Shown here: in pieces, positions 2,347 through 47,165 of the stretch
How the letters are laid out: each line of letters opens with the position of its first letter
Position numbering within the stretch: position 1 is the first letter of the stretch
Assembly (NCBI GenBank): GCA_001821935.1
Contig: MHOU01000010.1
Location: 45,157-93,778, forward strand
DNA: 48,622 nt
Direction of reading: 5' to 3'
Source: Candidatus Staskawiczbacteria bacterium RIFCSPHIGHO2_02_FULL_43_16
Lineage (GTDB): Bacteria > Patescibacteriota > Minisyncoccia > Minisyncoccales > Staskawiczbacteraceae
The notes under the pieces: generated by a model
Told to the model about the DNA's origin: nothing
The model's input: the letters and a program-made list of their open reading frames with translations, nothing else
The model's database searches: none
Position numbers and translations under genes: made by a program

Positions 2347-3435
2347 ATGATTGTAACGTTATTAATAGCATTTCTAAGCTTGATTGCCTTAATGATCATC
2401 CATGAATTTGGGCATTTTATCATTGCCAAAAAATTCGGGGTGAAAGTGGAGGAATTCGGCATCGGTTATCCGCCTCGCTTGTTTGGTAAGCAATTCGGTG
2501 AAACGATTTATTCAGTTAATTTAATTCCGCTGGGGGCGTTTGTACGTATTTATGGAGAAGAAGGGGGCGTGGATGATTACAGAAGTTTCGTGGGCCTTGC
2601 CATTTGGAAACGGATTTTAATTGTCTTGGGTGGCGTGCTGGCCTTTTGGATTGCCAGCGCCATTATTTTTTCTTTTGTTTTTTTTATCGGCGCCAGTGTG
2701 CCGGTGGGGGACCAGGATGTGGTTGGAGTAACCAGCACCCAGGTGTTGGTCATGGCGGTGCAGGCGGATTCCCCAGCTCAAAAAGCGGGTTTGAAACCCA
2801 AAGATGAAATAGTGGGTTTCAACAAAATTGCTGATTTCCAGGCCTTCATAGAAGCCAACAAGGGCGCGGCGGCCAGTTTGACGTTTAAGCGCGATGGCAA
2901 AGAAATGACCGTTAGTTTGACTCCACGTGTAACTTATCCGGAAGGCCAGGGCCCGACCGGCGTGGCTCTGGAACGGGTTGCCAATGTGATTGAAAAAGCT
3001 CCGTGGTATTTGGCGCCAGTAAAGGGGATTATGTTTACCGGTGAAATAACCTGGGCGGCATTAGCAGGTGTTTACGGTTTTTTTACCAGCATCTTTTCAG
3101 GCCAAGGAGTTCCGCCTGAAGCGCAATTGGCCGGCCCGGTGGGCATTACCATTTTTTTATCAAAGGCGGCTGATTACGGCGTTGGTTTCTTTTTGTATTT
3201 TATCGGATCACTTTCTGTTTTGCTGGCTATTTTTAATTTGTTTCCCATTCCGGCGCTGGACGGCGGCAAATTATTATTTTTGATCATTGAAAAAATCCAA
3301 AAAAAACCCGTGCCGGTAAATTGGGAACAGGGGCTGACTATTTTGTGTTTTGTATTGCTAATAACCATGTCAATATTCATCACCGTCAAATTTGATATCC
3401 CACGGGTGGTGGAATTGTGGCGCGCGGGCTTGTAA
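2347..3435 (+). CDS. rseP: Site-2 zinc metalloprotease RseP (M50 family, with PDZ domain)
   Basis: HEFGH zinc motif, a multi-pass membrane profile, and a central PDZ-like segment. The ATG at 2347 is preferred over the TTG at 2317, which overlaps frr. Confidence 0.8.
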   Translation: MIVTLLIAFLSLIALMIIHEFGHFIIAKKFGVKVEEFGIGYPPRLFGKQFGETIYSVNLIPLGAFVRIYGEEGGVDDYRSFVGLAIWKRILIVLGGVLAFWIASAIIFSFVFFIGASVPVGDQDVVGVTSTQVLVMAVQADSPAQKAGLKPKDEIVGFNKIADFQAFIEANKGAAASLTFKRDGKEMTVSLTPRVTYPEGQGPTGVALERVANVIEKAPWYLAPVKGIMFTGEITWAALAGVYGFFTSIFSGQGVPPEAQLAGPVGITIFLSKAADYGVGFFLYFIGSLSVLLAIFNLFPIPALDGGKLLFLIIEKIQKKPVPVNWEQGLTILCFVLLITMSIFITVKFDIPRVVELWRAGL

Positions 3436-3481
3436 ATTGTAAATTGTAAATTGTATATTGTATATTGTAATTTGTAATTTT
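3431..3481. repeat. Tandem heptamer array: (TTGTAAA)x3 (TTGTATA)x2 (TTGTAAT)x2
   Basis: Read directly from the rseP-proS intergenic sequence. It may contain overlapping -35/-10-like hexamers for proS. Confidence 0.8.
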
Positions 3482-4742: not shown

Positions 4743-5793
4743 ATTATTTTCATTTTTGTCTTTAGACATGGCCATTGACTTAGGTACGGCCAACTCTTTG
4801 GTGTACGTTAAAGACCGGGGCATTATTATCAACGAACCTTCGGTTGTTGCGGTAAATAATAAAACCGGGCAGATTTTGGCTATCGGGGAAGAAGCCAAAA
4901 AAATGGTGGGCAGAACCCCTTCTTATATAACCGCCACCCGGCCTTTGGTAAATGGGGTGATTTCAGATTTTGAAGTAACCGAGCAAATGCTTAAATATTT
5001 TATTGAAAAGGCGGTGGCTGGTTCTAAAAAATGGTGGGGGTTTGGCTATTCGCCAAGGGTTATTATTGGCATTCCCTGCGGCGTAACCGAAGTGGAAAGA
5101 AAGGCCGTAAGAGACGCGGCCAAAAACGCTGGTGCCAGGACGGTTTTTTTGATTGAGGAGCCTTTGGCTTCTGCCATTGGCGCGAAGTTGCCCATCCAAG
5201 AACCGGGTGGAAATTTTATTGTTGATATTGGCGGGGGAACTACCGAAGTGGCTGTGATTTCTTTAGGGGGGATTGTGGCATTTCGGAGCTTGCGTGTTGC
5301 CGGTGATAAATTAAATGATGATATTATTCAGTTTGCCCAAAAAGAATATAAGCTGTTGATTGGTGAGCGTACGGCGGAATTCATTAAAATAAACATTGGC
5401 AGTGCCATGGCCATGAAAGAAAAAAAGGAAATGCCCATGCGCGGGCGGAATTTAGTGACGGGGCTTCCCGAAGAAGTGGTGATTTTTAACGATGACATTC
5501 AGCGGGCCTTGGAACGTTCAGTCAAACAAATTGTAGCAGCCATTAAAACGACCATTGAAGAAACCCCACCGGAACTTTTGAGCGATGTGATGACCAACGG
5601 TATTTTTTTGGCTGGCGGCGGAAGTTTACTGCGCGGCCTTGATGCATTGATTGCTCGGGAGACAAAGATGCCATGCAGGATCATTGATGATCCGTTGACT
5701 TCTGTGGTACGTGGCTGTGGCATTGCCTTGGAAAATATTGAAACTTTAGAAACGTTGGTGCAAAAGGATGAAGAATGGGGGGCACCGGTGTAG
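4723..5793 (+). CDS. mreB: Rod-shape determining protein MreB, full length
   Basis: MFGNISKLFSFLSLDMAIDLGTANSLVYV matches the MreB N-terminus. DIGGGTTEVAVISLGG is the actin phosphate-2 loop. Confidence 0.9.
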   Translation: MFGNISKLFSFLSLDMAIDLGTANSLVYVKDRGIIINEPSVVAVNNKTGQILAIGEEAKKMVGRTPSYITATRPLVNGVISDFEVTEQMLKYFIEKAVAGSKKWWGFGYSPRVIIGIPCGVTEVERKAVRDAAKNAGARTVFLIEEPLASAIGAKLPIQEPGGNFIVDIGGGTTEVAVISLGGIVAFRSLRVAGDKLNDDIIQFAQKEYKLLIGERTAEFIKINIGSAMAMKEKKEMPMRGRNLVTGLPEEVVIFNDDIQRALERSVKQIVAAIKTTIEETPPELLSDVMTNGIFLAGGGSLLRGLDALIARETKMPCRIIDDPLTSVVRGCGIALENIETLETLVQKDEEWGAPV

Positions 5794-6477: not shown

Positions 6478-6768
6478 ATGATAAGTAAAGAAGAGGTGCA
6501 ACATATTGCAAAATTAGCGAGATTGGAATTGACTGAACAGGAAACCGAAAAAATGCAGAAAGACATGTCTGCGATTTTGGATTATTTTGATGTACTGAAA
6601 AAAGCACCCAAAATAAAATCTAGTCCCGTGGTTCGGACTACAGGACTAAAAGAAAACGCGACCAGGAAAGATTTGGTGGTGGAAAGGCCGGCCAGTTTGG
6701 CCAACAATTTGGTTGGCGCCGCACCGGACAGAAAAGATGATTATATTAAGGTGAAATCAATTTTGTAA
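6478..6768 (+). CDS. gatC: Glu/Asp-tRNA amidotransferase subunit C
   Basis: 96 aa. EEVQHIAKLARLELTEQETEKM is the GatC signature. It contains the in-frame 28-nt repeat at 6621..6648. Confidence 0.85.
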   Translation: MISKEEVQHIAKLARLELTEQETEKMQKDMSAILDYFDVLKKAPKIKSSPVVRTTGLKENATRKDLVVERPASLANNLVGAAPDRKDDYIKVKSIL

Positions 6769-6859
6769 TTTTAAATTTTTAATTTTGTAAATAATTCGTC
6801 AATTTTTAAACATTTAAGCATTATTTTAAAATTAGAAATTAAAAATTAGAAATTCTCAG

Positions 6860-9557: not shown

Positions 9558-10064
9558 ATGCAAGAAGAAAAAACACTTACGGAAGCTACATTGTGTTATT
9601 TGGTGACTGATTCCCATATTTCCCTTGGCATCAAAAAGAAAAAAATCGGTAAGGGTAAATACAATGGTTACGGCGGTGGCTTTGAGAGAAACGAAGATGC
9701 CCAGCAGTGCGTGGTCCGTGAGTGTGACGAAGAAGTTGGGGTTCAAGTGTTTCCCAGCTCGCTCCAAAAAGTGGCTTTGGTATATTTCAACAATACCAAA
9801 AGCGATGGCAATACGTTTACCTGCAAGGTGCATGTGTACTTCGCTACCCGATGGCAGGGAACACCCAGGGAAACGGAAGAAATTGCTAACCCGCATTGGT
9901 TTCCTAGGGCAGGGTTGCCGTTTGCGCGCATGATGCCGGCGGACCGGTTCTGGCTGCCACCCGTCCTGGAAGGCAAGAAAGTGATAGCCCGGGCATGCTA
10001 TGGGCCATTCCAAAGAGAGTTACTGAAACTGGTGGAAGTAGAAATGGTTGATGAACTTGCGTGA
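9558..10064 (+). CDS. Nudix hydrolase, MTH1/NUDT1-like (8-oxo-dGTPase type)
   Basis: Nudix box GGGFERNEDAQQCVVRECDEEVG. C-terminal MMPADRFWLPPVLEGKK resembles MTH1 MWPDDSYWFPLLLQKKK (from memory). Confidence 0.7.
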   Translation: MQEEKTLTEATLCYLVTDSHISLGIKKKKIGKGKYNGYGGGFERNEDAQQCVVRECDEEVGVQVFPSSLQKVALVYFNNTKSDGNTFTCKVHVYFATRWQGTPRETEEIANPHWFPRAGLPFARMMPADRFWLPPVLEGKKVIARACYGPFQRELLKLVEVEMVDELA

Positions 10065-10138
10065 GGCTTCTCGTTACCGGGAAGCCTTTTTTATGTGTTG
10101 ATTTTTGTATTTTTGAGTGATAAACTTGGCATAATAAC

Positions 10139-12287: not shown

Positions 12288-12390
12288 TATTCCCCGATCA
12301 ATCCTTGTCTTCCGCCAGTCTTACGATTGGCGGTTTTTATTTTATGAAAAATATGGTAAAATTCATTTATAAAATTAAATCCACCAACTT

Positions 12391-13507
12391 ATGGCAGGAC
12401 AGCAAGAACATATAGACAAGCTGGGTGAACAGGTCCAATATTTGGTGGACCGGCTTTGATGTTGATGTAAAAGAGAAAGAATTAAAGGCATTAGAACTGC
12501 AAACGCAGGCGGTAGATTTTTGGAATGATCACCAGGTAGCTGCCACGATAAGCCAGAAAATTGCAGAGTTAAAGGAGGAATTGGAGGTGGCCGAATCTTT
12601 GAAGAAAGAATTTGCGGATTTAAAAGAATTGAATGAACTGGGGCAGGTTGATGAAGCTGCGGTTGAAAAGTTACAGGTAAAAGTGGCCAGGGAAGAAAGC
12701 AAGGCATTTTTATCGGGGAAGTATGATAAAAATAACGCCATTTTAGAAATTTTCAGCGGAGCCGGCGGGGTGGACGCGCAAGATTGGGCCACCATGTTGC
12801 TTAGGATGTACCAGCGTTATTGTGTGATTAAAGGCTGGAAGGCGGAAATTCTGCACCAAAGTTTTGGTGAAGGTGGCGGGCCGGACGGGCGCATTGGCAC
12901 CAAAAATGTGACGCTGGCAATTCAAGGCAAGTTTGCCTATGGCATGCTAAAAAAAGAAGCGGGAGTACACCGCCTGGTGCGCCAATCACCGTTTTCTTCC
13001 CAGAAACTGCGCCATACTTCGTTTGCCTTGGTGGAAGTGATGCCGGAAATTGCTCAAAGTGCGGAACTTGAAATAAAACCGGAAGACTTGCGGGTGGACA
13101 CGTTTCGGGCTTCAGGGCCTGGCGGGCAGTATGTCAATAAAACCGAATCGGCCATTCGCTTGACCCATATTCCCACGGGCATTGCCGTGGCTTCCCAGAG
13201 CGAACGTTCCCAGGGCCGTAACCGCGAAAACGCCATGAAAATTTTATATGCCAAACTGCACGCGGCCCAGCAGCAAGAGCATAAAAAAGAACTAAAAGAA
13301 ATTAAGGCCGCCCAGAATACTGGGCGAGCCTCGCCAGCGGGCGGGGAGAATAGTGCTTCATGGGGAAACCAGATCCGCAGCTACGTGTTACATCCGTACA
13401 AAATGGTAAAAGATTTGCGCACCCAGTATGAAACCAGCCAAGCCGAAGATGTGCTGGAAGGAAACTTAGAAGAATTCATCCAAGCAGAAGTAAAATACCA
13501 TGATTAG
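12391..13507 (+). CDS. prfB: Peptide chain release factor 2 with programmed +1 frameshift: join(12391..12456,12458..13507)
   Basis: ORF0 is MAGQQEHIDKLGEQVQYLVDRL, ending at CTT TGA T. The +1 frame continues DVDVKEKELK... through SPF and GGQ (SGPGGQYVNKTESAIRLTHIPTG). A GGTGGA SD-like sequence lies upstream of the shift site. Confidence 0.85.
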
Positions 13508-14180
13508 ATTTGAAAAGGTTACCAAAATTTACTTGCCCGAATCCGCCGTTTTGCAAGATGTTTCTTTTGAAGTAAAAAAGGGCGAGTTTGTTTCCATTGT
13601 GGGAAAATCGGGGGCGGGCAAATCCACCTTGATTAAAATGATTTTGGGGTTGGAAGAGCCCACCTACGGCGATGTCTTTTTTAACGGGGAAAACATTCAT
13701 AAAGTCAGCCACAATGAATTGCAGAATATCCGGCGTAAAATCGGCGCGGTTTATCAGGATTACAAGTTGCTGCCCGCCAAAACCGTGTATGAGAACGTAG
13801 CCTATATCATGGAAATTGAAGGCAGGGTAAACGAAGATATTGCTTTGCAGGTTCCCAGGGTACTGGCGGCCATCGGGCTGAAAGAGAAAATGGATAACTT
13901 TCCCGAAGAACTTTCCGGCGGCGAACAGCAGCGCCTGGCCATTGCCCGGGCGTTAGCGGGGCAGCCGGAGGTGATTATTGCGGATGAGCCGACCGGGAAT
14001 TTGGATCCGTATAATTCCCATGAAGTGCTGGCGCTGTTGGAAAAAATAAACCGGTCGGGGAAAACCGTTATCTTGGCCACGCACGATAGGGAAATTGTCA
14101 ACAAATTAGCGCGAAGGGTGATTACCATAGAAGACGGGAGGGTGGTGAGGGACGAAGAAAAAGGAAGATTCATTATTTAG
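13500..14180 (+). CDS. ftsE: Cell division ATP-binding protein FtsE
   Basis: Walker A GKSGAGKST, ABC signature LSGGEQQRLAIARAL, 226 aa, adjacent to ftsX. Confidence 0.9.
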   Translation: MIRFEKVTKIYLPESAVLQDVSFEVKKGEFVSIVGKSGAGKSTLIKMILGLEEPTYGDVFFNGENIHKVSHNELQNIRRKIGAVYQDYKLLPAKTVYENVAYIMEIEGRVNEDIALQVPRVLAAIGLKEKMDNFPEELSGGEQQRLAIARALAGQPEVIIADEPTGNLDPYNSHEVLALLEKINRSGKTVILATHDREIVNKLARRVITIEDGRVVRDEEKGRFII

Positions 14181-14262
14181 GGTCTAGGGGATAGGGTCTA
14201 GGGTCTAGTAAAAACGTAACACGGCGTTACGGCTAAACCCTAACCCCTAGACCCTAAGCCCT
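14178..14262. repeat. Heptamer-array palindrome: (TAGGGTC)-like x4 ... (CTAAACC/CTAACCC/CTAGACC/CTAAGCC)
   Basis: The two arms are roughly reverse-complementary around a loop (aaaaacgtaacacggcgttacgg). Read directly from sequence. Likely a terminator for ftsE or a REP-like element. Confidence 0.6.
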
Positions 14263-14269
14263 CAAAAAA

Positions 14270-15181
14270 ATGGCACATTTTTCAAGGGTATTGGGTTTCG
14301 CTTTTGCGCATTTTTACCGTAACAAAGGCACTTCCGTGGCCGCGATTTTTATTTTAACCATCACCACCCTGCTTATCACCGGGCTGTTTTTTGTGCGCGG
14401 CGCCAGTAATTACGTTATCGCTCAGGTGCAAAACAAAATTGACATTACCGCCTATTTTAAAGCGGACGCGGCCGAAGATGATATTTTGCAGGTGCGCCAG
14501 GAATTGCTGCAAGATGGCGAAGTTGTCAGGGCGGTTGAATATGTTTCCCAAGACCAGGCTTTGGCCGATTTTAACGCAAAGCACCAAGATGATCCCACCT
14601 TTGAACGCGCACTTCAGGAAGTGGGGCAGAATCCCTTTTTGCCTTCACTGAATATTATTACCAATGGGGCGGCGGCTGAATATGAGAATGTTGCCAATGT
14701 GCTGACCCAGGATAAATATGCCGTGCTAATAGAAGAGGTTGATTTTTCTGAAAAAAGGGATACTATTGAAAAGGTCTTTGCCATCACGGGTAGCATCACG
14801 CGGTTTGGGCTGGTGGCCGGGGTATTGCTTTTGCTGATTGCCATTTTAGTGGTTTTTAACACCATCAAACTGATTGTGGAAACTTCCGGGCAGGAAATCA
14901 GCACCATGCGTATTGTGGGGGCTTCAAACTGGTTTATTCGCGCGCCATTTGTTATTCAAGGGGTTATTTTTGGGGCCATTTCGTTTGCCATTTGTTTTGT
15001 GGCAACCGCTTTGATAGCTTATCTTTTAGCTTCGGGGATTTCTGTTATCATGCCTGGATTTAATTTGTTCACATTTTTCCTTTCTAATATTTTGATTATC
15101 ATGGTCATTCAACTGGCCGCCGGCGCGGGCCTGGCAAGTTTGTTAAGTTTTATGGTGGTGAGGAAGTATTTAAAAGTATAA
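14270..15181 (+). CDS. ftsX: Cell division permease-like protein FtsX
   Basis: N-terminal TM helix, extracytoplasmic domain, three C-terminal TM helices, and position after ftsE. Confidence 0.85.
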   Translation: MAHFSRVLGFAFAHFYRNKGTSVAAIFILTITTLLITGLFFVRGASNYVIAQVQNKIDITAYFKADAAEDDILQVRQELLQDGEVVRAVEYVSQDQALADFNAKHQDDPTFERALQEVGQNPFLPSLNIITNGAAAEYENVANVLTQDKYAVLIEEVDFSEKRDTIEKVFAITGSITRFGLVAGVLLLLIAILVVFNTIKLIVETSGQEISTMRIVGASNWFIRAPFVIQGVIFGAISFAICFVATALIAYLLASGISVIMPGFNLFTFFLSNILIIMVIQLAAGAGLASLLSFMVVRKYLKV

Positions 15182-15278
15182 ACCCTAAATACTAAATCCT
15201 AAACTCTAAATAAATTCAAAATCACAAAATTTAAAATCTAAAACACGTTTAGGATTTAGAGTTTAGTGTTTATGGTTT
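15181..15278. repeat. Heptamer-array palindrome: CCTAAAT/ACTAAAT/CCTAAAC/TCTAAAT ... TTTAGGA/TTTAGAG/TTTAGTG/TTTATGG
   Basis: Same family as 46604..46712 (shared CTAAACTCTAAATAAAT and TTTAGGATTTAGAGTTTAGTGTTTA). Arms are mirror heptamer arrays. Confidence 0.6.
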
Positions 15279-15283
15279 AACAT

Positions 15284-23559: not shown

Positions 23560-23834
23560 CTAGGGCGCCAGTTCATATTATAACTTATGGTAGCGAGTAA
23601 ATTCGGGCAAGATTCAAGGCGCAACGAGGAAACGTATCCTCTGCGATACGTTGACGAAGTTGCAACGATGAAGCTTGCCCGAATTCACTCGCCCAAAGGG
23701 AAACCAAAAAATGGCTGATTTCTTCGTTTTTCCTCGTCGGCGATACACTGCGGTATCGCCTCCTCGGAAGAAACCTTGAAATCATCTCATTTTTTGGCTT
23801 CTACCATAAGTCCTAATATGAACTGGCACCCTAG
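23560..23834. mobile_element. MITE-like structured element, copy 2 (~275 bp; 34-bp TIRs CTAGGGCGCCAGTTCATATTATAACTTATGGTAG)
   Basis: TIRs match with 3-4 mismatches. The core aligns to copy 1 (GGCAAGATTCAAGGCGC, GCAACGATGAAGCTTGCC, CATTTTTTG(A)GCTTCTA). The internal stem shows compensatory changes. Confidence 0.55.
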
Positions 23835-23877: not shown

Positions 23878-24624
23878 ATGGCCAAAGTGAAAGTCTTGGT
23901 GCAAGGGTACACGAATGCGGATTCAAAAGAAGTAATAGGACATGAAAAAACTTGTCCTACTATTACATTAGTGGTGGACAAGGGTATTGTCATGGTGGTG
24001 GATCCGGGGGCCTTGGATAATCAAAAAATCCTGGTTGACGCCCTGGCGCGCGAAGGCTATTTGGTTGACGATGTGAATATAGTTTGCATTACCCATTCCC
24101 ACGCGCACCATTACATGAATGTGGGGATGTTTCAAAAAGCCAAAGTGTTGGAGTATTTTGGCCTTTGGACCGGAGGAATGGTTCAAGACTGGCAGGAAAA
24201 TTTCAGTGATGATATCCAGATTTTAAAAACCCCGGGGCATGATTATAGCGGGATTTCGCTTTTTGTAAAAACCCATGAAGGGGTGGTGGCCATTTGTGGA
24301 GATGTGTTTTGGAATGAAGACGGCCCCGAGTTTGATATGTATGCCTCTGACCAGAAGGTATTAAAGCACAGCCGCCAGCTGGTCACACAGATGTCTCATT
24401 GGATTATTCCCGGACACGGGGGCATGTATAAAACGAAGCAGTTGTCTTCAATCCCACCAAGCGGGGCGGCCAAATCGGAAGCGTCAGTAGCGGGAAGCTG
24501 CAAAAAGTGCCACCGGCTGTTTAAAAAAATAACCGATAAATGCATTTGCCAGGATTGGTTATGTTATCACTGCTGCGAATGCGAAGCCGACTGCAAGGTG
24601 TGCAATTGCAAGGTAAGAAGGTAG
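23878..24624 (+). CDS. MBL-fold metallo-hydrolase with a C-terminal cysteine-rich tail
   Basis: ITHSHAHHY metal-binding motif. The last 45 aa carry 12 Cys (CKKCHRLFKKITDKCICQDWLCYHCCECEADCKVCNCKV). The upstream part of the tracked ORF lies inside MITE copy 2, so the ATG at 23878 is preferred. Confidence 0.6.
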   Translation: MAKVKVLVQGYTNADSKEVIGHEKTCPTITLVVDKGIVMVVDPGALDNQKILVDALAREGYLVDDVNIVCITHSHAHHYMNVGMFQKAKVLEYFGLWTGGMVQDWQENFSDDIQILKTPGHDYSGISLFVKTHEGVVAICGDVFWNEDGPEFDMYASDQKVLKHSRQLVTQMSHWIIPGHGGMYKTKQLSSIPPSGAAKSEASVAGSCKKCHRLFKKITDKCICQDWLCYHCCECEADCKVCNCKVRR

Positions 24625-24630
24625 TTTATT

Positions 24631-24712
24631 GGGGTCTAGCGTCTAGGGTATAGGGTATAGTAAAACGGCGTACGTCGTGACTAGCCCCTAGCCCCTATCC
24701 CCTAAACCCTCA
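24631..24712. repeat. Heptamer-array palindrome: GGGTCTA/GCGTCTA/GGGTATA/GGGTATA ... CTAGCCC/CTAGCCC/CTATCCC/CTAAACC
   Basis: Same architecture as 14178..14262. Lies between the MBL gene and the DUF167 gene. Confidence 0.6.
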
Positions 24713-27840: not shown

Positions 27841-28851
27841 ATGATTATGAAAACTGCGTTTTTTGAAGTGAAAGAGTGGGAAAAGGAATATTTACAAAAT
27901 CATTTCAGCCCGGCTGAGGCGGTTTTTTTTGCCGAAAAACTTTCGGTTGAAAATGCGGCTTTGGCCAAAGATTGCCGGATTGTTTCCGTGTTTGTGGATT
28001 CCGCCGTTGATGCCCATGTGTTGGCGGCGCTGGCGGATCTGAAAATGGTGGCGGTGCGGGCCACCGGTTATGACAATGTTGACGTGGCTTATTGTAAAGA
28101 AAAGGGGATTACGGTTTGTAATGTGCCGTTTTACGGCGAAAACACGGTAGCGGAACACACCTTTGGTTTGATTTTGGCCCTTTCGCGCAAAATGTACCAA
28201 TCGGTTGATAAGGTGAAAGAAGAGGGTTTTGCGGTTGCCATTGACGAATTCCGCGGGTTTGACCTGAAAGGAAAAGTCTTGGGCGTGGTGGGCATGGGCC
28301 ACATTGGCCAGCACGTGGCGCGCATGGCGCAGGGTTTTGAAATGAAGGTGGTGGCCTTTGATGCCCATGAAGATAAAAAATTGGCCAAAAAATTGGGGTT
28401 TGTTTATGTGAGCCTGGAAGAATTATTAAAGTCTGCGGACATTATCACTTTGCATGTACCCTATAATGAACACACACGCCACTTAATCAATTCGCAAAAT
28501 ATCCACATTATTAAAAAGGGGGCGTATATCATCAACACCGCCCGCGGGGGCATTATTGAAACCGCGGCGTTGGTTGAGGCGTTGGCGGAAGGAATTATTG
28601 TCGGCGCGGGGCTGGATGTGTTGGAAGAAGAAGCGTTTATCAAAGAAGAAGCCCACTTACTTTCAAAAAATTATTCCCAAAAGAGCGATATGAAAACCAT
28701 GCTCCAAAACCACATTTTAATGGACCGCAAAAATGTAATTATTACCCCGCACAATGCTTTTAATTCAACGGAAGCCCTGGAAAGGATACTTGAGACTACC
28801 GTGGAGAATGTTAAATCATTCATAGAAGGAAAATCTGTTAATGTGGTATGA
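27841..28851 (+). CDS. D-isomer-specific 2-hydroxyacid dehydrogenase (D-lactate dehydrogenase-like)
   Basis: GVVGMGHIGQHVARMA NAD-binding GxGxxG motif and catalytic-domain layout. Confidence 0.8.
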   Translation: MIMKTAFFEVKEWEKEYLQNHFSPAEAVFFAEKLSVENAALAKDCRIVSVFVDSAVDAHVLAALADLKMVAVRATGYDNVDVAYCKEKGITVCNVPFYGENTVAEHTFGLILALSRKMYQSVDKVKEEGFAVAIDEFRGFDLKGKVLGVVGMGHIGQHVARMAQGFEMKVVAFDAHEDKKLAKKLGFVYVSLEELLKSADIITLHVPYNEHTRHLINSQNIHIIKKGAYIINTARGGIIETAALVEALAEGIIVGAGLDVLEEEAFIKEEAHLLSKNYSQKSDMKTMLQNHILMDRKNVIITPHNAFNSTEALERILETTVENVKSFIEGKSVNVV

Positions 28852-28972
28852 GAATGTAAAATGCAAATATCAAAATGGAAAATGACAGTTCAAAATTCAA
28901 AATGATTCGGTTGTAAAGTTTTACATTTTACATTGTCACTTTCCATTTTGATTTTTAAACTTTAAATTATTT

Positions 28973-30344: not shown

Positions 30345-31571
30345 ATGTCAAAGATAACAGAAATTATTGCGAAAGAAATTAAAGATTCGCGCGGGAAACC
30401 GACCGTAGAGGTGCATTTAACTACCAAAGATGGGACATTTGTGGCTAGTTGCCCTTCAGGGGCTTCAACGGGAATTCATGAGGCTTTGGAATTGCGCGAT
30501 GATGATGGGCGGGGAGTTAGCAAGGCTATTGCCAATGTCAATGAAATTATTGCGCCAAAGTTAATTGGCAAAGACCCCAGCAACCAGAAAGAATTAGATG
30601 AATTGATGTTGGCGCTTGACGGCACGCCTAATAAATCAAAGTTAGGAGCCAATGCAATACTTCCTGTATCGATGGCTGTTTGTAGATCCGGCGCCGCAGC
30701 GAAGAAAATATCGCTCTATCAGCATTTGGCTGATATTGCGGGATTTAAGATTCAAGATTTAGGATTTAAGATGCCTTTGCCAAGCTTTAACATTTTAAAC
30801 GGCGGGGCGCATGCTAAAAATGAATTGGAATTGCAAGAGTTTATGGTGGTGCCCATGAAAAAAACCTTTCAGGAAAATTTGGTGCTGGGAAGCGAAGTGT
30901 TTAATAAATTAACAGAACTGTTAAAACAAACTCCTGCTGGCGTGCCGGAAATGGGTGACGAAGGGGGATATGCTCCGCAAATTGCCACGGCTGAACAGGC
31001 GTTGATGCTGATTAAAAGCGCTATTGGTGACCACAAAGATGTAAAAATTGCACTGGACTGCGCCGCTTCGGAATTTTACCGTGATGGAAAATATGAAGTG
31101 GAAGAAGGAAAAGCCTTGAGCCGCAATGAAATGATTGATTTTTACAAAGATATTGTAGTGCGCTATCCGATTGTTTCTATTGAAGATGCCTTTGCCGAAG
31201 AAGATTGGAATGGATTCCAGGAAATCCGCAAAGCGTTGCCCGAAACCATTATTATTGGTGACGATTTGACGACAACCAATGTGATAAAAATTAAGGAAGC
31301 GGAAAGCAAAAAAGCCTGCAATGGCATTATTATCAAGGTCAACCAAATTGGCACGGTTTCTGAAACCATTGACGCGGTAAAACTGGCGCAAAGCTATGGT
31401 TGGAAAATTATGGTCAGCCACAGAAGCGGAGAAACCATGGACAGCTTTATTGCAGACTTGGCGGTTGGCGTTGGCGCAGACTTTATCAAATCAGGGGCAT
31501 ACACCAAAGACGTGCGCATTGTAAAATATGATAGGCTTTTGGCGATTGAACAGGAGTTAAATAAGAAATAA
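30345..31571 (+). CDS. eno: Enolase
   Basis: 408 aa. Canonical enolase N-terminus and SHRSGETED-type motif (SHRSGETMDS). Confidence 0.95.
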   Translation: MSKITEIIAKEIKDSRGKPTVEVHLTTKDGTFVASCPSGASTGIHEALELRDDDGRGVSKAIANVNEIIAPKLIGKDPSNQKELDELMLALDGTPNKSKLGANAILPVSMAVCRSGAAAKKISLYQHLADIAGFKIQDLGFKMPLPSFNILNGGAHAKNELELQEFMVVPMKKTFQENLVLGSEVFNKLTELLKQTPAGVPEMGDEGGYAPQIATAEQALMLIKSAIGDHKDVKIALDCAASEFYRDGKYEVEEGKALSRNEMIDFYKDIVVRYPIVSIEDAFAEEDWNGFQEIRKALPETIIIGDDLTTTNVIKIKEAESKKACNGIIIKVNQIGTVSETIDAVKLAQSYGWKIMVSHRSGETMDSFIADLAVGVGADFIKSGAYTKDVRIVKYDRLLAIEQELNKK

Positions 31572-31854: not shown

Positions 31855-31973
31855 AGTAGTTTTTCCTTTCAATGAGCGAATGATGGGTAATTTCACTAAC
31901 CATTATATTATATTAAAATTTAATTTTGTCAAATAACCCCAGTCCTGTAGTCCGAACCACAGGACTAAAATAA

Positions 31974-32327
31974 ATGACAGTCTTTCACCTAAATAAACTG
32001 CCAAAAGAAAAACGCATCCAGATGATTGGCGAGTTTTACGATATGGTGGATTCGCTAAAAGACAGAAATGAAGTGCGGTTATTTTTTAAGAGTCTTTTGA
32101 GTGCCGATGAAATAGCTAGTCTTATGAGACGGATAGAAATTGCCATGTTGTTGTCTTCTGGCCAGAAATACGAGGATATTATCAAAACCATGAAAGTGGG
32201 GCGTGATAAAATTTCCAGTGTGCATAAGGCGCTTCTGCAAGATGACAGCGGTTATGCTATAATCGTGGAAAGATTAATTGAAAATCGGAAGAAGTGGGTG
32301 GAAAAAGTGAAAAAGGATAAAAAATAA
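31974..32327 (+). CDS. yerC: TrpR-like YerC/YecD family DNA-binding protein
   Basis: SADEIASLMRRIEIAMLL...ISSVHKALLQDDSGY pattern of the Trp-repressor-related family. Flanked by inverted copies of the 28-nt hairpin repeat. Confidence 0.65.
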   Translation: MTVFHLNKLPKEKRIQMIGEFYDMVDSLKDRNEVRLFFKSLLSADEIASLMRRIEIAMLLSSGQKYEDIIKTMKVGRDKISSVHKALLQDDSGYAIIVERLIENRKKWVEKVKKDKK

Positions 32328-32393
32328 ATGCCAAAGTAACCGTAGTCCCGTGGTTCGGACTACAGGACTAGAATATCATAGTAGAAACTAAGT

Positions 32394-35690: not shown

Positions 35691-35763
35691 ATCCCGATCA
35701 ATTTAGCAAAGCTAAATTGATACGGGATCCCGTATCAAAATTTATACTAAATTTTTATCGGGA
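35691..35763. repeat. Palindromic mini-element, copy 2 (TIR ATCCCGAT...ATCGGGAT), without a nested tRNA
   Basis: Homologous to the arms around tRNA-Ile at 22684..22831, with the same internal palindromes. Confidence 0.6.
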
Positions 35764-36232: not shown

Positions 36233-38665
36233 ATGAAAAATGTTTTGTGGTTTAAAGAGCTAGGCATTAAAGATGTGCCGCAGGTGGGCGGGAAAAATGC
36301 CTCGCTTGGTGAAATGTATAATAATTTGCTAAGTAAGGGAGTTAATTTGGCAAACGGTTTTGCCACCACCTCCCAGGCTTATTTTATTTTTCTGGAAAAA
36401 AGCGGCTTGTCTTTGCAAATCCAGAACATTTTAAAAGATATTAATGTGCATGACCTGGCCGCACTGCAAGAAAAAGGCAAGAAAGTGCGCCAGCTTATTT
36501 TGAGTGTTAATTTGCAGCCCGCCCTTCAAGAAGAAATCATCGCGGCTTACCGCCAGCTGTCGGATATGTACGGGTCAAAAAATACCGATGTGGCAGTAAG
36601 GTCTTCGGCCACTGCCGAAGACCTGCCCGGAGCCAGTTTTGCCGGCCAACAGGAAACGTTTTTAAATGTTACCGGGGAACAAAATGTATTGGAGGCGGTG
36701 AAAAAATGCTTTGCATCTTTGTTCACTGACCGGGCCATTGCTTACCGCCAGGAAATGGGGTTTGGGCATACCAAAGTGGGCTTATCGGCTGGCATCCAAA
36801 AAATGGTGCGCTCCGACGTGGGCGCCAGCGGCGTGATGTTTTCCTGTGACACGGAAAGCGGTTTTGGCGACGTGGTGCTCATTAACGCCAGCTATGGTTT
36901 GGGTGAAAATGTGGTGTTGGGAAGAGTGGAGCCGGACCAATATTACGTGTTTGAGCCTACCCTAAAAACGGGGCACAAACCCATTATCCAAAAAAAAATC
37001 GGGTCAAAGCTTTTGACCATGGTTTACACCAAAGACCCAAAAAACCCGATTAAAAACACCAAAACCTTGCCAAAAAACCAGCAATCATTTGTGTTGGCAG
37101 ATGAAGAAATTTTGCAGCTGGCTAAGTGGTCAATGCTGGTGGAAGCCCACTACCAAAAACCCATGGACATGGAATGGGCCAAAGACGGTATTGACGGCAA
37201 ATTGTATATTGTCCAAGCTAGGCCCGAAACCGTACAAAGCAAACGGAACGTGAATGTGCTAGAAGATTACGTTTTGCAAACACCCAAAACCCAACACCTA
37301 ACACCCATTGCTAGGGGCATGAGTGTCGGGGGAAAAATCGGATCCGGCAAGGCCCATAAAATTTTAAGCCCGAAGGATATTAATAATTTCAAAAAAGGGG
37401 AAGTGCTGGTAACCGGCATGACAGACCCGGACTGGGTGCCGGCCATGAAACTGGCCAGCGCGATTATTACCGACCAGGGCGGTCGCACGGCTCACGCGGC
37501 CATTGTTTCCCGTGAATTGGGAATTCCCTGCATTGTGGGCGCGGGCAATGCCACTAAAACCGTAAAAACCGGCCAGGAAATTACCGTGGATTGTTCCGGC
37601 GGAGAAGAGGGCTTTGCTTACGAAGGCATTATTCCGTTTGAAATAAAAAAAGTAGATATTTCAAAATTAAAAAAGCCCAAAACTAAAATCGCCATGAACT
37701 TGGCAGACCCTTCCCAAGCCTTTAATTTAAGCTTTATTCCCAATGACGGCGTGGGCCTAGCGCGGGAAGAATTTATTATTGCCAACACCATCAAAATTCA
37801 CCCCAACGCCCTGATAGATTACAAAAAATTAAAGCCGGCGCTGCGTAAAAAAATTGACGCGCTGACGCTGGGGTATGAAAATAAGATTGATTTTTACGTT
37901 GATAAATTGGCCGAAGGGGTGGGGAAAATTGGCGCGGCATTTTACCCAAAACAGGTGATAGTGCGATTTTCTGATTTTAAAACCAACGAATACCGTCAGT
38001 TGGTAGGCGGCGAGCTTTACGAAATGCATGAAGAAAATCCCATGATGGGTTTTCGCGGAGCTTCCCGGTATTATCACGAAAGTTTCAAGCAGGCCTTTAT
38101 GTTGGAATGCCAGGCCATTAAAAAAGTGCGGGAGGAATTTGGCATTGATAACGTGCAAGTGATGATTCCCATGTGCCGGACTATTGAAGAGGGCCAGAAG
38201 GTGCTGGAAGTCATGAAGGAAGCCGGTTTGGTGAAAGGTGAGAACCCTTCGACAGGCTCAGGGCAAGTGGCCTTGAAAGTATATGTCATGTGCGAACTTC
38301 CGGCTAACGTGGTTTTAGCAGAACAGTTTTTGGAAATGTTTGACGGCTTTTCCATTGGGTCTAATGATTTAACCCAGTTTACCCTGGGCCTGGACCGCGA
38401 TAATTCGGAAATGTCCGGCGTTGCCAACGAAAAAAATGATGCGGTGAAAGAATTAATTAAAGAGGCGGTGCGGGTTTGTAAAAAAATGGGGAAATATTCG
38501 GGCATTTGCGGAGACGCGCCTTCCACATTCCTTGAATTTACCAAATTTTTGGTAGACCAGGGCATTGAATCAATTTCTTTGTCATCAGACGCCATTATTA
38601 AAACTACGATGGCGGTACTTGAGTATGAAAAGGAAAAATCCGCAAATACAATTAATAGGACGTAG
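36233..38665 (+). CDS. ppsA: Phosphoenolpyruvate synthase (pyruvate, water dikinase)
   Basis: 810 aa. N-terminal ATP-grasp, central phospho-His domain, C-terminal PEP-utilising domain. In-frame PSTGSGQVA insert relative to E. coli ...GENG-LKIIMMCE.... Confidence 0.9.
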   Translation: MKNVLWFKELGIKDVPQVGGKNASLGEMYNNLLSKGVNLANGFATTSQAYFIFLEKSGLSLQIQNILKDINVHDLAALQEKGKKVRQLILSVNLQPALQEEIIAAYRQLSDMYGSKNTDVAVRSSATAEDLPGASFAGQQETFLNVTGEQNVLEAVKKCFASLFTDRAIAYRQEMGFGHTKVGLSAGIQKMVRSDVGASGVMFSCDTESGFGDVVLINASYGLGENVVLGRVEPDQYYVFEPTLKTGHKPIIQKKIGSKLLTMVYTKDPKNPIKNTKTLPKNQQSFVLADEEILQLAKWSMLVEAHYQKPMDMEWAKDGIDGKLYIVQARPETVQSKRNVNVLEDYVLQTPKTQHLTPIARGMSVGGKIGSGKAHKILSPKDINNFKKGEVLVTGMTDPDWVPAMKLASAIITDQGGRTAHAAIVSRELGIPCIVGAGNATKTVKTGQEITVDCSGGEEGFAYEGIIPFEIKKVDISKLKKPKTKIAMNLADPSQAFNLSFIPNDGVGLAREEFIIANTIKIHPNALIDYKKLKPALRKKIDALTLGYENKIDFYVDKLAEGVGKIGAAFYPKQVIVRFSDFKTNEYRQLVGGELYEMHEENPMMGFRGASRYYHESFKQAFMLECQAIKKVREEFGIDNVQVMIPMCRTIEEGQKVLEVMKEAGLVKGENPSTGSGQVALKVYVMCELPANVVLAEQFLEMFDGFSIGSNDLTQFTLGLDRDNSEMSGVANEKNDAVKELIKEAVRVCKKMGKYSGICGDAPSTFLEFTKFLVDQGIESISLSSDAIIKTTMAVLEYEKEKSANTINRT

Positions 38666-38723
38666 GATTGGTTAGTCACACATCATCTCCACACCCATGC
38701 ACCAACGCATGGGTGTAAGAAAT

Positions 38724-39155
38724 ATGCCAACATTCCACCTAAATAGTTTACCAAAAGAAAAGAGAATTCAAATGATTGGCGAGTTTTATGATACGGTTGA
38801 TTCACTGAAAGACAGGCAAGAGGTTCGCTCATTTTTCAAATCATTGCTAGCCGCCGATGAAATTGCTGCGCTCATGAGGAGGATTGAAGTGGCAATGCTT
38901 CTATCTGCTGAATATAGCTACGATAAAATCAAGAAAATGTTGGGGGTGGGGAATAATAAAATTTCTAGTGTGCATAAAGCGTTGCTTCAAGACGATAGTG
39001 GATATGCTATGATTGTTAAAAGATTGATTGAGGACAGGAAAAATAGGTTAATAAAAATAAAAAAAGAAGGGAAGGGTACAATAGACGAAAAAGAATTAGA
39101 AAGGGAGGCGCTACTATTTACTCCGTCGTCTGCGGCGGTCAGGAGAAAGAAATAG
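38724..39155 (+). CDS. TrpR-like YerC/YecD family protein, second paralogue
   Basis: About 70% identical over ~110 aa to the protein at 31974..32327, with a C-terminal extension. Confidence 0.65.
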   Translation: MPTFHLNSLPKEKRIQMIGEFYDTVDSLKDRQEVRSFFKSLLAADEIAALMRRIEVAMLLSAEYSYDKIKKMLGVGNNKISSVHKALLQDDSGYAMIVKRLIEDRKNRLIKIKKEGKGTIDEKELEREALLFTPSSAAVRRKK

Positions 39156-44721: not shown

Positions 44722-44767
44722 TAAAAAAATGAGCCGTTTCGCTTTTGCGAAACGGCTCATTTTTTTA
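44722..44767. terminator. Bidirectional intrinsic terminator directly after the prfA stop
   Basis: AAAAAAATGAGCCGTTTCGC-tttt-GCGAAACGGCTCATTTTTTT. Confidence 0.7.
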
Positions 44768-45562
44768 CTAGACCCTAGACCCTTCTTTTTTCTGCTCTTC
44801 CTCGAATTTCTTAAAGGCTTTGAAAATGGGCTCCATTTTGCCCTCTACAATATCTTCCAAATTATGCCAGGATTTTTCTATCCTATGATCGGTAATTCTA
44901 TTTTGCGGGTAATTATAGGTTCGGGTTTTTTCAGAACGCTTGGCCCAGCCAATTTGCTCCCGGCGCGCTTGGGTTAATTTTGATGAATCGGCTTCTTGCT
45001 GGGCTTTCAAAAGGCGCGCGCCCAAAAGCCCCATGGCATTTTCTTTATTTTGCAGCTGGCTTCGTTCTGTTTGACTGGTCACCACAAGACCGCTGGGGAT
45101 ATGGGTGATTCTAATGGCAGATTCAGTTTTATTTACGTGTTGGCCGCCAGCGCCTGAAGAGCGGTAAGTGTCTATTTTAAGATCAGAAGGATTTATGGTA
45201 ATGTCCATTTTGGTGGGTTTTTCTAAAACGGCAATGGTTACCGTTGAAGTGTGTACACGCCCTTGTTTTTCGGTGGCTGGAATACGCTGAACCCGGTGCA
45301 CCCCGCTTTCATATTGCATGGCTTCAAATGCGCCCGAGCCGGAAAGTTCAAACACGATTTCTTTATAACCCCCCACATCTGAAGTGTTGGAATCGATGAC
45401 TTTATTGCCCCACCCTTGGCTAGTGGCATATTTTGAATACATCCGGTATAAATCACGCACAAAAAGCCCAGCTTCGTCTCCACCGGTCCCCGCGCGAATT
45501 TCAATAATCACGGATTGCTTTCCGCCCCCACCCGTTTGTTGTTGATATTCTTGATAATCCAT
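44768..45562 (-). CDS. prfA: Peptide chain release factor 1 lacking N-terminal domain 1
   Basis: PAT tripeptide (QRIPATEKQGR), GGQ (SSGAGGQHVNKTESAIRITHIPSG), and EIRAGTGGDEAGLF matching E. coli RF1 around residue 107. An in-frame stop lies 5 codons upstream of the ATG, and only 77 bp separate it from rpmE. Confidence 0.8.
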   Translation of the reverse strand: MDYQEYQQQTGGGGKQSVIIEIRAGTGGDEAGLFVRDLYRMYSKYATSQGWGNKVIDSNTSDVGGYKEIVFELSGSGAFEAMQYESGVHRVQRIPATEKQGRVHTSTVTIAVLEKPTKMDITINPSDLKIDTYRSSGAGGQHVNKTESAIRITHIPSGLVVTSQTERSQLQNKENAMGLLGARLLKAQQEADSSKLTQARREQIGWAKRSEKTRTYNYPQNRITDHRIEKSWHNLEDIVEGKMEPIFKAFKKFEEEQKKEGSRV

Positions 45563-45909: not shown

Positions 45910-46610
45910 TGACATCCGAATCTACTAATAACGTAAAACTTAACGCGGATGATATGGCCAAAGCCGGCCTGAATTTTGGTCATACCGTTTCCAAGCTTCA
46001 TCCTAAAATGAAGGCTTTTGTACAGGGCGTTAAAAGCAATGTCCACATGATTGATATGGAAAAGTCCGCCAAAGAATTTGATTTGGCTTTGAAATTTATT
46101 TCCCAATTAGTTGCCGAAGGAAAAACATTGCTGTTTGTGGGAACAAAAATACAGGCAAAAAATTTAACCAAAGTAGCGGCGGTGGAAAGCGGTATGCCAT
46201 ATGTTACCGAACGGTGGCTGGGTGGAGCCTTTACTAATTTTGAAACCATTTCAAAACGGGTGGCTCACTTGAAAGACTTGGAAAGCAAAAAAGCCAAAGG
46301 TGAATTTGAGAAATATACCAAATATGAACAGATGATGCTTAATGAAGAAATCGCTTCGCTGACCACGAAATTTGAAGGCATCAAAAATATGGCAAAGTTG
46401 CCGGAAGCCGTTTTAATTTTAGATTTAAAAAAAGACATTGCCGTAGCGCGTGAAGCAAAACGCAAGGGTATTAAAATTGTGGGCATTGTAGACACCAATA
46501 TTGACCCGGCTCTGGCCGATTACGCCATTTATGCCAATGATGACGCCGTTTCTTCTATTGGATACGTGCTGGAAAAAATCAAAGAAACTATATTAAGTGC
46601 GAAACCCTAA
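45909..46610 (+). CDS. rpsB: 30S ribosomal protein S2
   Basis: GHTVSKLHPKMKAFV...LFVGTK. Confidence 0.9.
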   Translation: MTSESTNNVKLNADDMAKAGLNFGHTVSKLHPKMKAFVQGVKSNVHMIDMEKSAKEFDLALKFISQLVAEGKTLLFVGTKIQAKNLTKVAAVESGMPYVTERWLGGAFTNFETISKRVAHLKDLESKKAKGEFEKYTKYEQMMLNEEIASLTTKFEGIKNMAKLPEAVLILDLKKDIAVAREAKRKGIKIVGIVDTNIDPALADYAIYANDDAVSSIGYVLEKIKETILSAKP

Positions 46611-46712
46611 ATCCGAAACCCTAAACTCTAAATAAATAAAAAATTCAAAATAAAAAACGTTTTGAGTTTAAATATTTGAGTTTATTTAGGATTTAGAGTT
46701 TAGTGTTTAGAA
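46604..46712. repeat. Heptamer-array palindrome of the 15181 family: AACCCTAAA/TCCGAAACCCTAAA/CTCTAAA ... TTTAGGATTTAGAGTTTAGTGTTTAG
   Basis: Shares the right arm and CTAAACTCTAAATAAAT with 15181..15278. Lies between rpsB and tsf. Confidence 0.6.
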
Positions 46713-46715
46713 TTT

Positions 46716-47165
46716 ATGATTAATATCGAAGATATTAAGAGATTGAGAGATGAAACCGGTGCCTCGCCGGTGAAAATTAAAAAGGCCATGGAAGAGTCTG
46801 GGGAAGATGTTCAAAAAGCCAAGGAATTGTTGAAAAGCTGGGGAGCGGTAAAAGCCGGTGAAAAAGGAGGGCGCGAAACCCATGACGGTGTGATTGATTT
46901 TTATATCCATCCTAATGCCAAGTCCGGCGTACTACTGGATATCCGTTGTGAAACTGATTTTGTGGCAAAAAACCCCGATTTTAAAAGCCTGGCTCACGAA
47001 ATTTGCCTGCACATTGCCGCCATGCAGCCTGAAAATGTTGAAGCCTTGCTGGCGCAATCCTGGGTAAAAGACGATGCCAAAACCATTAAAAGTTTGATTG
47101 AAGAAACAGTAGCTAAAATAGGGGAGAATATTACTGTGAAACAGTTTGCACGCTTTGCGATATAA
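46716..47165 (+). CDS. tsf: Elongation factor Ts, short form
   Basis: 149 aa. IKRLRDETGASPVKIKKAMEESGEDVQKAKELL N-terminal UBA-like domain. Confidence 0.85.
   Translation: MINIEDIKRLRDETGASPVKIKKAMEESGEDVQKAKELLKSWGAVKAGEKGGRETHDGVIDFYIHPNAKSGVLLDIRCETDFVAKNPDFKSLAHEICLHIAAMQPENVEALLAQSWVKDDAKTIKSLIEETVAKIGENITVKQFARFAI

Follow-up and report, generated by a model that had tools for sequence, protein, structure and literature searches.

Palindromic repeats with tandem-heptamer arms at stop/start junctions in a Candidatus Staskawiczbacteria genome

In this study, we describe palindromic repeats with arms of tandem heptamers that lie between the genes of a 48,622-nt stretch of contig MHOU01000010.1 (hereafter the window) of Candidatus Staskawiczbacteria, a groundwater bacterium belonging to the Parcubacteria of the candidate phyla radiation (CPR). 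The genes of the window lie almost all on one strand, and the cluster also holds tRNAs and 16S rRNA. FtsX homologues carry the name Candidatus Staskawiczbacteria, and the identical FtsX protein is encoded on 23 contigs, among them GCA_001820305.1 (MHPC01000002) and GCA_035291005.1. The initial annotation had placed hairpins directly after ftsE, ftsX, a metallo-beta-lactamase-fold (MBL) gene and rpsB, and domain matches bore out both the gene identities and the placement: the protein upstream of the 14178 element is an ABC ATPase next to FtsX, i.e. FtsE, the FtsX and Lactamase_B domains were confirmed at the named flanking genes, the MBL gene is followed by a DUF167 gene around the 24631 element, and Ribosomal_S2 (rpsB) is followed by EF-Ts (tsf) around the 46602 element. 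Further flanking pairs are GatC/GatA, an M50 peptidase and an aminoacyl-tRNA synthetase (aaRS), and a 2-hydroxyacid dehydrogenase and a TrxR-like protein.

Heptamer arrays at the gene junctions of the window

All four elements listed initially are real, and their description as long imperfect palindromes with tandem-heptamer arms agrees with the sequence itself, with Tandem Repeats Finder, with the inverted repeats and with the folds; the list was incomplete in that it missed two further palindromes, at gatC/gatA and at the dehydrogenase/TrxR-like junction, and a one-armed array at M50/aaRS (Table 1). The elements measure about 80-115 bp, and the arm units at the four originally noted sites are TAGGGNN/NNCCCTA or CTAAANN/NNTTTAG. 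Each element takes up its spacer completely: the stop codon of the preceding gene is the first TAG or TAA of the array or lies at most 10 nt from it, and the downstream start follows 0-7 nt beyond the last heptamer unit. At five of five protein-protein junctions the stop and start codons lie at most 7 nt from the foot of the hairpin, or inside it. A census of all spacers of the window returned seven with a period-7 score of at least 0.67, all of them 53-121 nt long and between co-directional genes of the + strand, and the elements together take up about 1.4% of the window.

Table 1. Heptamer elements of the window, their flanking genes and the spacers found at the same junctions in relatives
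Position (strand)	Element	Upstream gene	Downstream gene	Junction in relatives
3430-3477 (+)	one-armed (TTGTAAA/TTGTATA)7 array	M50 peptidase	aaRS	16-20 nt
6759-6854 (+)	AT-rich heptamer palindrome, AATTTTN / AAAATTAG units	gatC (stop at 6768)	gatA (ATG 6860)	genes overlap (L011)
14178-14262 (+)	a1-type heptamer palindrome	ftsE	ftsX (ATG 14270)	11 nt (L011, L012), 14 nt (L226), empty
15179-15279 (+)	b-type heptamer palindrome, arms (CTAAANN)4 / (NNTTTAG)4	ftsX	tRNA-Gln (15284)	3 nt (L012, L224), empty
24631-24710 (+)	a2-type heptamer palindrome	MBL-fold gene (stop at 24624)	DUF167 gene (ATG 24716)	6 nt (L012), empty
28853-28968 (+)	heptamer palindrome, AAAATGN / NCATTTT units	2-hydroxyacid dehydrogenase (stop at 28851)	TrxR-like (ATG 28973)	
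46602-46716 (+)	b-type heptamer palindrome	rpsB	tsf (ATG 46716, foot of stem)	5 nt (L229), 11 nt (L230), empty

The ftsE/ftsX element illustrates how closely array and gene end are interlocked. The stop codon of ftsE (TAG, 14178-14180) doubles as the first unit of a left arm (14178-14208) reading TAGGGTC TAGGGGA TAGGGTC TAGGGTC TAG, i.e. (TAGGGNN)4, which is followed by a 24-nt loop containing a GC mini-hairpin (14209-14232) and by a right arm (14233-14262) reading CTAAACC CTAACCC CTAGACC CTAAGCC CT, i.e. (CTARNCC)4. Likewise, the ftsX stop (TAA, 15179-15181) is in register with the array that follows it, the rpsB stop (TAA, 46608-46610) falls inside the first units of its element, and the 3430 array, which opens with the last codon and stop of the M50 gene, leaves 11 nt to the start of the aaRS gene.

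The heptamer period lies far beyond chance. Tandem Repeats Finder assigned arrays of period 7 to either arm of each of the six palindromes, and an autocorrelation scan of the window returned eight arrays of period 7 versus 0-3 for each other period from 4 to 12; TAGGGNNTAGGG occurs 8 times versus 0.01 expected and CTAAANNCTAAA 9 times versus 0.16 expected. The arms are complementary over 25 nt at 92% (14177/14233), 37 nt at 81% (15168/15247), 47 nt at 77% (46603/46675) and 50 nt at 78% (28853 element). In the RNAalifold structure of 11 aligned copies, the conserved TAGGG:CCCTA cores are paired and the variable heptamer positions 6-7 unpaired, forming 2x2 mismatches. Against shuffles, the RNA folds of either strand have z-scores between -2.5 and -7; for DNA folds, the z-scores of three originally noted elements are -6.0, -5.3 and -4.8, and that of the fourth, at 24631, is -0.9, indistinguishable from shuffles. 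A bias of the sense strand towards G-U pairs, as expected of mRNA-specific pairing, was considered and rejected: for five of the six palindromes the better RNA fold is that of the antisense strand, so that no bias of the mismatches towards G-U marks the mRNA.

Traces of the same periodicity were seen outside these junctions. Two RF1/RF2-family genes are present in the window, at 12425-13507 (+) and, in a shorter form of 264 aa, at 44768-45562 (-), and the stop codon of the latter is overlapped by a remnant, CTAGACC CTAGACC CT (44768-44783), which is a weak profile match (E = 7e-4) adjoining a bidirectional terminator at 44722-44767. Within coding sequence, 7-nt-periodic stretches occur at 30742-30772 (enolase) and 37277-37307 (PPDK); the enolase stretch is an in-frame 21-nt duplication (GFKIQDL GFKMPLP), 65% similar to a b-type arm, which suggests that heptamer arrays can expand in genes too when three units preserve the reading frame.

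Copies elsewhere and empty sites in relatives

The elements are not isolated in sequence. The initial annotation had seen long identical stretches between the elements at ftsX/tRNA-Gln and rpsB/tsf, and indeed these two are 81% identical overall, the right arms having an identical block of 25 nt and the left arms one of about 19 nt; together with the 85% identity of the 14178 element to unrelated loci described below, this supports the view that they behave as a dispersed repeat family. Copies of 80-97% identity, loop included, are present at unrelated loci of further contigs from groundwater. The arm-loop junction motif shared by the 14178 and 24631 elements, TAGGGTNTAGGGTNTAGTAAAA (20 specified bases), matched 90 metagenome stretches, the window's own contig not among them, versus about 1 expected by our own estimate, and many of these matches are complete elements between a stop codon and an ATG. 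Eleven aligned copies have 71% column identity, arm-loop junction included, and give the consensus AGGGTCTAGCGTCTAGGGTATAGGGTCTAGTAAAA-loop-(G)ACTAAACCCTAGCCCCTAGACCCTAAACCCT. Copies on L192 and L211 match the 14178 element at 85% identity, loop and all (ACG(T/C)AACA(C/T)GGCGTTACGG), and the flanks are unrelated; these two copies, from different loci of a single 194-kb contig (Ga0209542_10000121), have 97% identity. The contig also bears a b-type copy (L211) with a 20-nt identity to one arm of the 46602 element. The 24631 element in turn is 80-81% identical to copies on L194 and L200. A profile built from the alignment found several copies per contig, and on a Levyibacteriota contig (L079) five copies occur within 5.5 kb, at S5/L15, SecY/Adk, IF1/L36, S13/S11 and S11/S4, inside the spc/alpha ribosomal-protein operon (S5-L15-SecY-Adk-IF1-L36-S13-S11-S4). 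That loops are identical between unrelated loci of separate genomes is more than local slippage alone can produce, so some copying is needed. We therefore favour, at a probability of roughly 55%, the reading that these elements belong to a dispersed, non-autonomous family of palindromic repeats resembling repetitive extragenic palindromic (REP) sequences and miniature inverted-repeat transposable elements (MITEs), with arms formed by short tandem arrays of heptamers containing TAG or CTA.

A wider scan for (TAGGGNN)3TAG over one genome per prokaryotic species matched at least 120 stretches. Among the matches listed, most were from cyanobacteria, planctomycetes, acidobacteria and gemmatimonadetes, with some from CPR; 28 of the 134 arrays in that list had an inverted partner within 200 nt, and clear stop-hairpin cases were present in Brevundimonas, an Acidobacteriaceae metagenome-assembled genome and several cyanobacteria. 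A phage vector was also considered and discarded: the a-type motif had no match in IMG/VR, and the seven matches of a b-type 19-mer, some of them palindromic, in unrelated GC-richer contigs, were uninformative. The same database holds CTAAANN/NNTTTAG heptamer palindromes on predicted viral contigs of about 50% GC (L231-L237), of which L234 and L236 have a loop motif in common.

Copies with a clear strand asymmetry and an interpretable context are oriented uniformly, the A-rich loop (TAGTAAAA...) being on the coding strand in at least 12 of 12 copies, where contexts come from crude calls based on open reading frames (ORFs) and 10 of 48 copies were unclear; near-symmetric subfamilies on other, probably non-CPR, contigs show mixed orientation. 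Orientation is defined by the asymmetry of the loop only, and "G-rich arm first" was rejected as a marker, the palindrome reading alike on both strands.

Relatives of the window were collected via FtsX and S2 homologues (FtsX 71% in L011 and 76% in L012; S2 89% in L229 and 84% in L230). Those at 66-89% protein identity show empty spacers of 3-31 nt, or gene overlaps, at most of these junctions. In addition to the junctions given in Table 1, the ftsE/ftsX spacer of L225 is empty, measuring about 13 nt by sequence and 31 nt by gene call, and the 3430-type array is absent at the orthologous site in L225 and in the contig encoding P0008; altogether, six of six checked junctions are empty in at least one relative. 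Such empty or overlapping orthologous junctions mark the elements as lineage-specific insertions, and on sequence comparison they are shown to have entered very short stop/start spacers, or overlaps, in this Staskawiczbacteria lineage. In the closest relative, sample SRR22388241 (L224 and L228; FtsX 85%, S2 92%), the ftsE/ftsX spacer (L224) holds not the TAGGGTC element but a TTGTAAA/TTGTATA array, the unit of the 3430 array of the window, and the rpsB/tsf spacer (L228:4903-4995) holds a different palindrome with a 9-nt period and ACGTT-type units. L225, the 66% relative, has 9-nt-period CTAATTNNN palindromes at RRF/M50 and gatC/gatA (1140-1300 and 5350-5480). The occurrence of 9-nt-period palindromes at stop/start junctions of relatives means that the phenomenon is not strictly heptameric, and the same junctions have either been colonised repeatedly and independently or undergo fast turnover.

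Competing explanations and known repeat systems

The initial annotation regarded the elements as probable terminators, a reading that the evidence does not support. Stable hairpins do stand immediately after stop codons, and the antisense strand of the a1 loop forms a GC mini-hairpin followed by TTTTTAC that a terminator scan flagged at 14231-14215; however, an intrinsic terminator combines a GC stem and U-tract with the end of a transcription unit, and neither was found here. Directly after the elements the coding strand has CAAAAAAATG, CAAGAATG, TTTATG or a tRNA, and in no case a U-tract; they sit inside the co-directional pairs ftsE-ftsX, gatC-gatA and rpsB-tsf, which are normally co-transcribed in bacteria, and copies occur within the ribosomal-protein operon. 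Moreover, the window uses canonical GC-hairpin-plus-U terminators elsewhere (10063-10088, 12312-12333, 18172-18202 and the bidirectional one mentioned above), and the orthologous sites in relatives lack the elements. Intrinsic termination at gene 3' ends is thus a highly improbable role. The resemblance to TTTAGGG-type telomere repeats, noted in the same place, is superficial as well. Telomere repeats are long homogeneous arrays made by telomerase at the ends of linear replicons, and the arrays described here are internal, comprise 3-5 degenerate heptamers that pair with their complement, and have locus-specific units (also AATTTTN, AAAATGN and TTGTAAA in this window), on which grounds a relation to telomeres was rejected. 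No Rfam family matched at the gathering threshold, and permissive settings gave only eukaryotic miRNA hairpins far below threshold. Nor is heptamer periodicity as unusual for bacteria as was first thought, considering the precedent of Xanthomonas (PMC4692102).

It could also be proposed that the elements are adaptive intercistronic mRNA hairpins, acting as sites for RNase III or as exonuclease barriers that set transcript stability and stoichiometry, their repeat nature being secondary. The REP in malEFG and selective RNA processing and stabilisation are precedents for differential stability within operon mRNAs, the sites lie between cistrons that need set ratios (ftsE/ftsX, gatC/gatA, S13/S11/S4), the orientation is uniformly sense, stems of at least 20 bp suit RNase III, and in related lineages these same junctions again bear elements of independent origin. 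On the other hand, most of these junctions have no spacer at all in relatives of 66-89% identity, hence the hairpin is not required; the antisense strand is the better folder in five of six cases; and RNAalifold on 11 copies found 19 pairs with compensatory changes in 0 of 19. No covariation was seen, and selection on RNA structure beyond the conserved cores is unsupported. We consider this explanation distinctly unlikely. Regulation by G-quadruplexes (G4), as proposed for the GGGAATC repeats of Xanthomonas, is very improbable. The 5' arms of the a-type elements do present, on either strand, four tracts of G3-4 separated by loops of 3-4 nt, and similar heptamers form G4 in vitro (PMC4692102), but G4 potential is confined to these two TAGGG-type elements, the other five of the seven (b, c, d and e types) having no G-tracts, and even in the a-type the complementary C-rich arm 20-30 nt away favours a duplex hairpin.

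The main rival of a dispersed family is an origin in situ without mobility, in which slippage at gene ends and template switching on quasi-palindromes would make each locus an independent product of mutational bias. Heptameric simple sequence repeats (SSRs) are over-represented in bacterial intergenic DNA, according to the passage of PMC4692102 that cites this result, the units differ by locus (TAGGGNN, CTAAANN, AATTTTN, AAAATGN, TTGTAAA), relatives show other units and periods at the same junction, and a 21-nt in-frame 7-periodic duplication has arisen inside the enolase gene. Several further observations favour this origin or otherwise weigh against a mobile family. The 3430 array opens with the native Leu-stop TTGTAA of the M50 gene and the 6759 array with the conserved gatC end AATTTTG, and arrays apparently seeded by the local gene end favour slippage in situ. 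Units and even the period (7 vs 9 nt) differ among close relatives at one junction, which a single mobile family does not explain. Ten near-identical population assemblies (99.8-100% identity) show no polymorphism in the elements, a result that also led us to reject hypervariability in the population. No consistent target-site duplication was found at the a1 copies (the 14178 element, L192 and L211) or at the a2 copy at 24631; a duplication of TA or TAA fits single copies and not the family, and the TAA...TAA at 15179/15276 is not reproduced elsewhere. Domain matches revealed no Y1/HUH or DDE transposase among the proteins of the window, and specifically no REP-associated tyrosine transposase (RAYT, Y1 HUH) domain in any of them; inspection of 1.55 Mb of loci, made with no systematic transposase scan, revealed no autonomous element with matching termini. 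No excision intermediate or allele was found, and the lack of compensatory changes counts in the same direction. However, loops and arm order that are 80-97% identical at non-orthologous loci, within and between genomes, and an arm-loop motif of 20 specified bases in 90 metagenome stretches go beyond local slippage, and we consider an origin wholly in situ unlikely. Slippage and template switching in situ certainly contribute, and a mixed model, in which copies of a dispersed family later evolve by unit slippage, fits best.

Measured against known classes, the elements have the terminal inverted repeats, the length of 50-500 bp and the lack of coding capacity that define MITEs (80-115 bp, arms 77-92% complementary, stops in all frames), and the fixed-length target-site duplication of MITEs was not found. 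They also have the degenerate 7-nt units, the intergenic location near the 3' end of the upstream ORF and the convergent arrays forming a stem-loop that characterize heptameric intergenic SSRs in inverted pairs. The 20-40-nt self-palindromic unit with a GTAG/GGAG head of REP/REPIN elements was not found, the arms having no self-complementarity beyond CTAG. Short tandemly repeated repetitive (STRR) heptamers of cyanobacteria, with related intergenic regions called structured but variable, reportedly lie in tandem in operon-internal spacers and vary between close strains, which the window elements resemble; TAGGGNN arrays were found in many cyanobacteria among the matches listed, some of them palindromic (L083, L089, L093, L128). 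STRRs are usually described as long direct arrays, whereas the window elements are compact palindromes of 85-115 bp that reach right up to the stop and start codons. Literature searches on CPR bacteria turned up no account of such elements or of STRRs. The Correia/NEMIS elements of Neisseria and the MITEs ERIC, RUP and Nezha are 100-150 bp long with long terminal inverted repeats, lie beside genes, form co-transcribed hairpins, which RNase III cleaves in Neisseria, and are polymorphic for presence/absence between relatives. Length, terminal inverted repeats, adjacency to genes and presence/absence between relatives are all shared with the window elements, which would likewise be co-transcribed and fold into hairpins. 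Unlike Correia/NEMIS, the window elements have no TA target duplication or identified parent insertion sequence, while Correia lacks internal periodicity.

Besides the STRRs, the closest described likeness is to the GGGAATC arrays of Xanthomonas campestris and X. axonopodis (Rehm et al. 2015, PMC4692102), which typically comprise about four degenerate heptamers, are about 90% intergenic, start on average 28 nt after the upstream ORF, lie mostly between co-directional genes and vary in length and sequence between close species; 70-75 of about 185 arrays lie in convergent inverted pairs able to form stem-loops, a share elsewhere given as about 75% of arrays (PMC4692102). The window elements likewise combine degenerate arrays of about four heptamers in convergent inverted pairs just 3' of an ORF, between co-directional genes. 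They differ in unit sequence and in filling the whole stop-to-start spacer, whereas about 160 nt separate the Xanthomonas arrays from the downstream gene; AT-rich units with no G4 potential coexist with G-rich ones in the window, and for Xanthomonas no conserved loop, family structure or orientation bias is reported. REP/REPIN elements, which are mobilised by RAYT transposases (Bertels and Rainey 2011, PMC3116915), are similar in being short, extragenic, dispersed palindromes with hairpins of about 100 nt, present inside operons with no target-site duplication, and dissimilar in that the arms described here are heptamer arrays with no inverted self-palindromic doublet, no GTAG/GGAG head beyond the periodic TAG and no RAYT seen in the window. 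The TAACTGA heptamers of Beggiatoaceae and cyanobacteria (MacGregor 2015, PMC4679880) share a stop codon within the unit, an intergenic location often ending a few nt from a start codon and a patchy distribution across phyla; unlike the window elements, they are direct repeats oriented upstream of genes, with 1 inverted case among 170 sets (PMC4679880).

Other repeats and features of the window may be recorded here. A perfect 33-nt direct repeat, GCTAAATTGATACGGGATCCCGTATCAAAATTT, containing an 18-nt palindrome, occurs in long, highly structured spacers at 22704-22736 and 35711-35743 and could be an operator or promoter element. In the region 22816-23817, a repeat of about 80 nt occurs twice (22956-23034 and 23662-23740; 81% identical), each copy with one arm of a 20-24-bp inverted repeat, and a duplicate of the tRNA-Ile 3' end lies at 23127-23162. 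Fold energies of the spacers are -0.43 to -0.47 kcal/mol per nt, and a permissive Rfam search of the region returned tRNA only. The hairpin repeat AGTCCCGTGGTTCGGACTACAGGACTA is present in three copies (6598-6651, 31917-31970 and 32320-32373), two of which flank a TrpR-family gene (31974-32327) with a paralogue at 38697-39155. Finally, an 835-aa protein encoded at 15590-18097 matches Pfam MVP_shoulder and, faintly, Vault_3, i.e. domains like those of the major vault protein in a CPR bacterium.

Tolerance within operons and implications

How operons absorb such insertions may be related to several features of the elements. In six of the seven, the 5' arm has stop codons in all three frames of the coding strand; Shine-Dalgarno-like motifs precede only 7 of the 45 genes of the window; the C-terminus of S2 has been altered, close homologues aligning over just 95-97% of the window protein, and the stop codon of ftsE has been changed from TAA to TAG. 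We propose that the elements would be co-transcribed with the operon genes and form a hairpin of 20-30 bp, in which 5-bp TAGGG:CCCTA helices alternate with 2x2 mismatches. In the orientation found, with an A-rich loop and no U-tract, sense transcription would not be terminated; the three-frame stops would end translation at once even where an insertion lies at the end of a gene or slightly within it, of which ftsE and S2 may be examples; and the folded hairpin would set the stop and start codons a few nt apart at its foot, mimicking the ancestral 5-15-nt spacer. On reaching the stop codon in the 5' foot, a terminating ribosome would open the lower part of the stem and free the start codon of the next gene, so that termination-reinitiation coupling could persist despite an insertion of 85-115 nt in a genome largely without Shine-Dalgarno sites. 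Insertions in the opposite orientation would put hairpin-plus-U signals into the operon mRNA and be purged, which would explain the orientation bias, and replication slippage of heptamers together with turnover would then diversify the arms. Translational coupling and a tolerated orientation are what we infer from this geometry; they would explain tolerance and are no proof of function.

The elements are best described as intergenic palindromic repeats made from heptameric SSRs with a REP/MITE-like lifestyle, noteworthy for their CPR setting, their placement between stop and start codons, their orientation bias and the turnover at the same junctions. A bolder proposal, which we hold possible rather than probable, is that at least two CPR phyla, the Parcubacteria and the Microgenomates/Levyibacteriota, have members with an undescribed class of hairpin elements that home specifically to operon stop/start junctions, replace one another there repeatedly and in one orientation, have a design that preserves or even enforces translational coupling in Shine-Dalgarno-poor genomes, and spread without target duplication, for instance by single-strand HUH-type or template-switch copying.

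CPR bacteria have some of the most compact genomes known, and yet these repeats sit where insertion is expected to be harmful, in ftsEX, gatCA, rpsB-tsf and ribosomal-protein operons. For annotation, neither a terminator nor an operon boundary should be entered at these elements; the stop codons that they bring in explain changed C-termini, RpsB being one case. Should the family be mobile, it would provide a marker of recent genome dynamics and a handle for strain typing in uncultured CPR lineages, as well as a natural experiment on which insertions operons absorb. And if the geometry of the hairpin foot preserves coupling, this would account for the build-up of palindromic repeats in particular between the cistrons of many bacteria.

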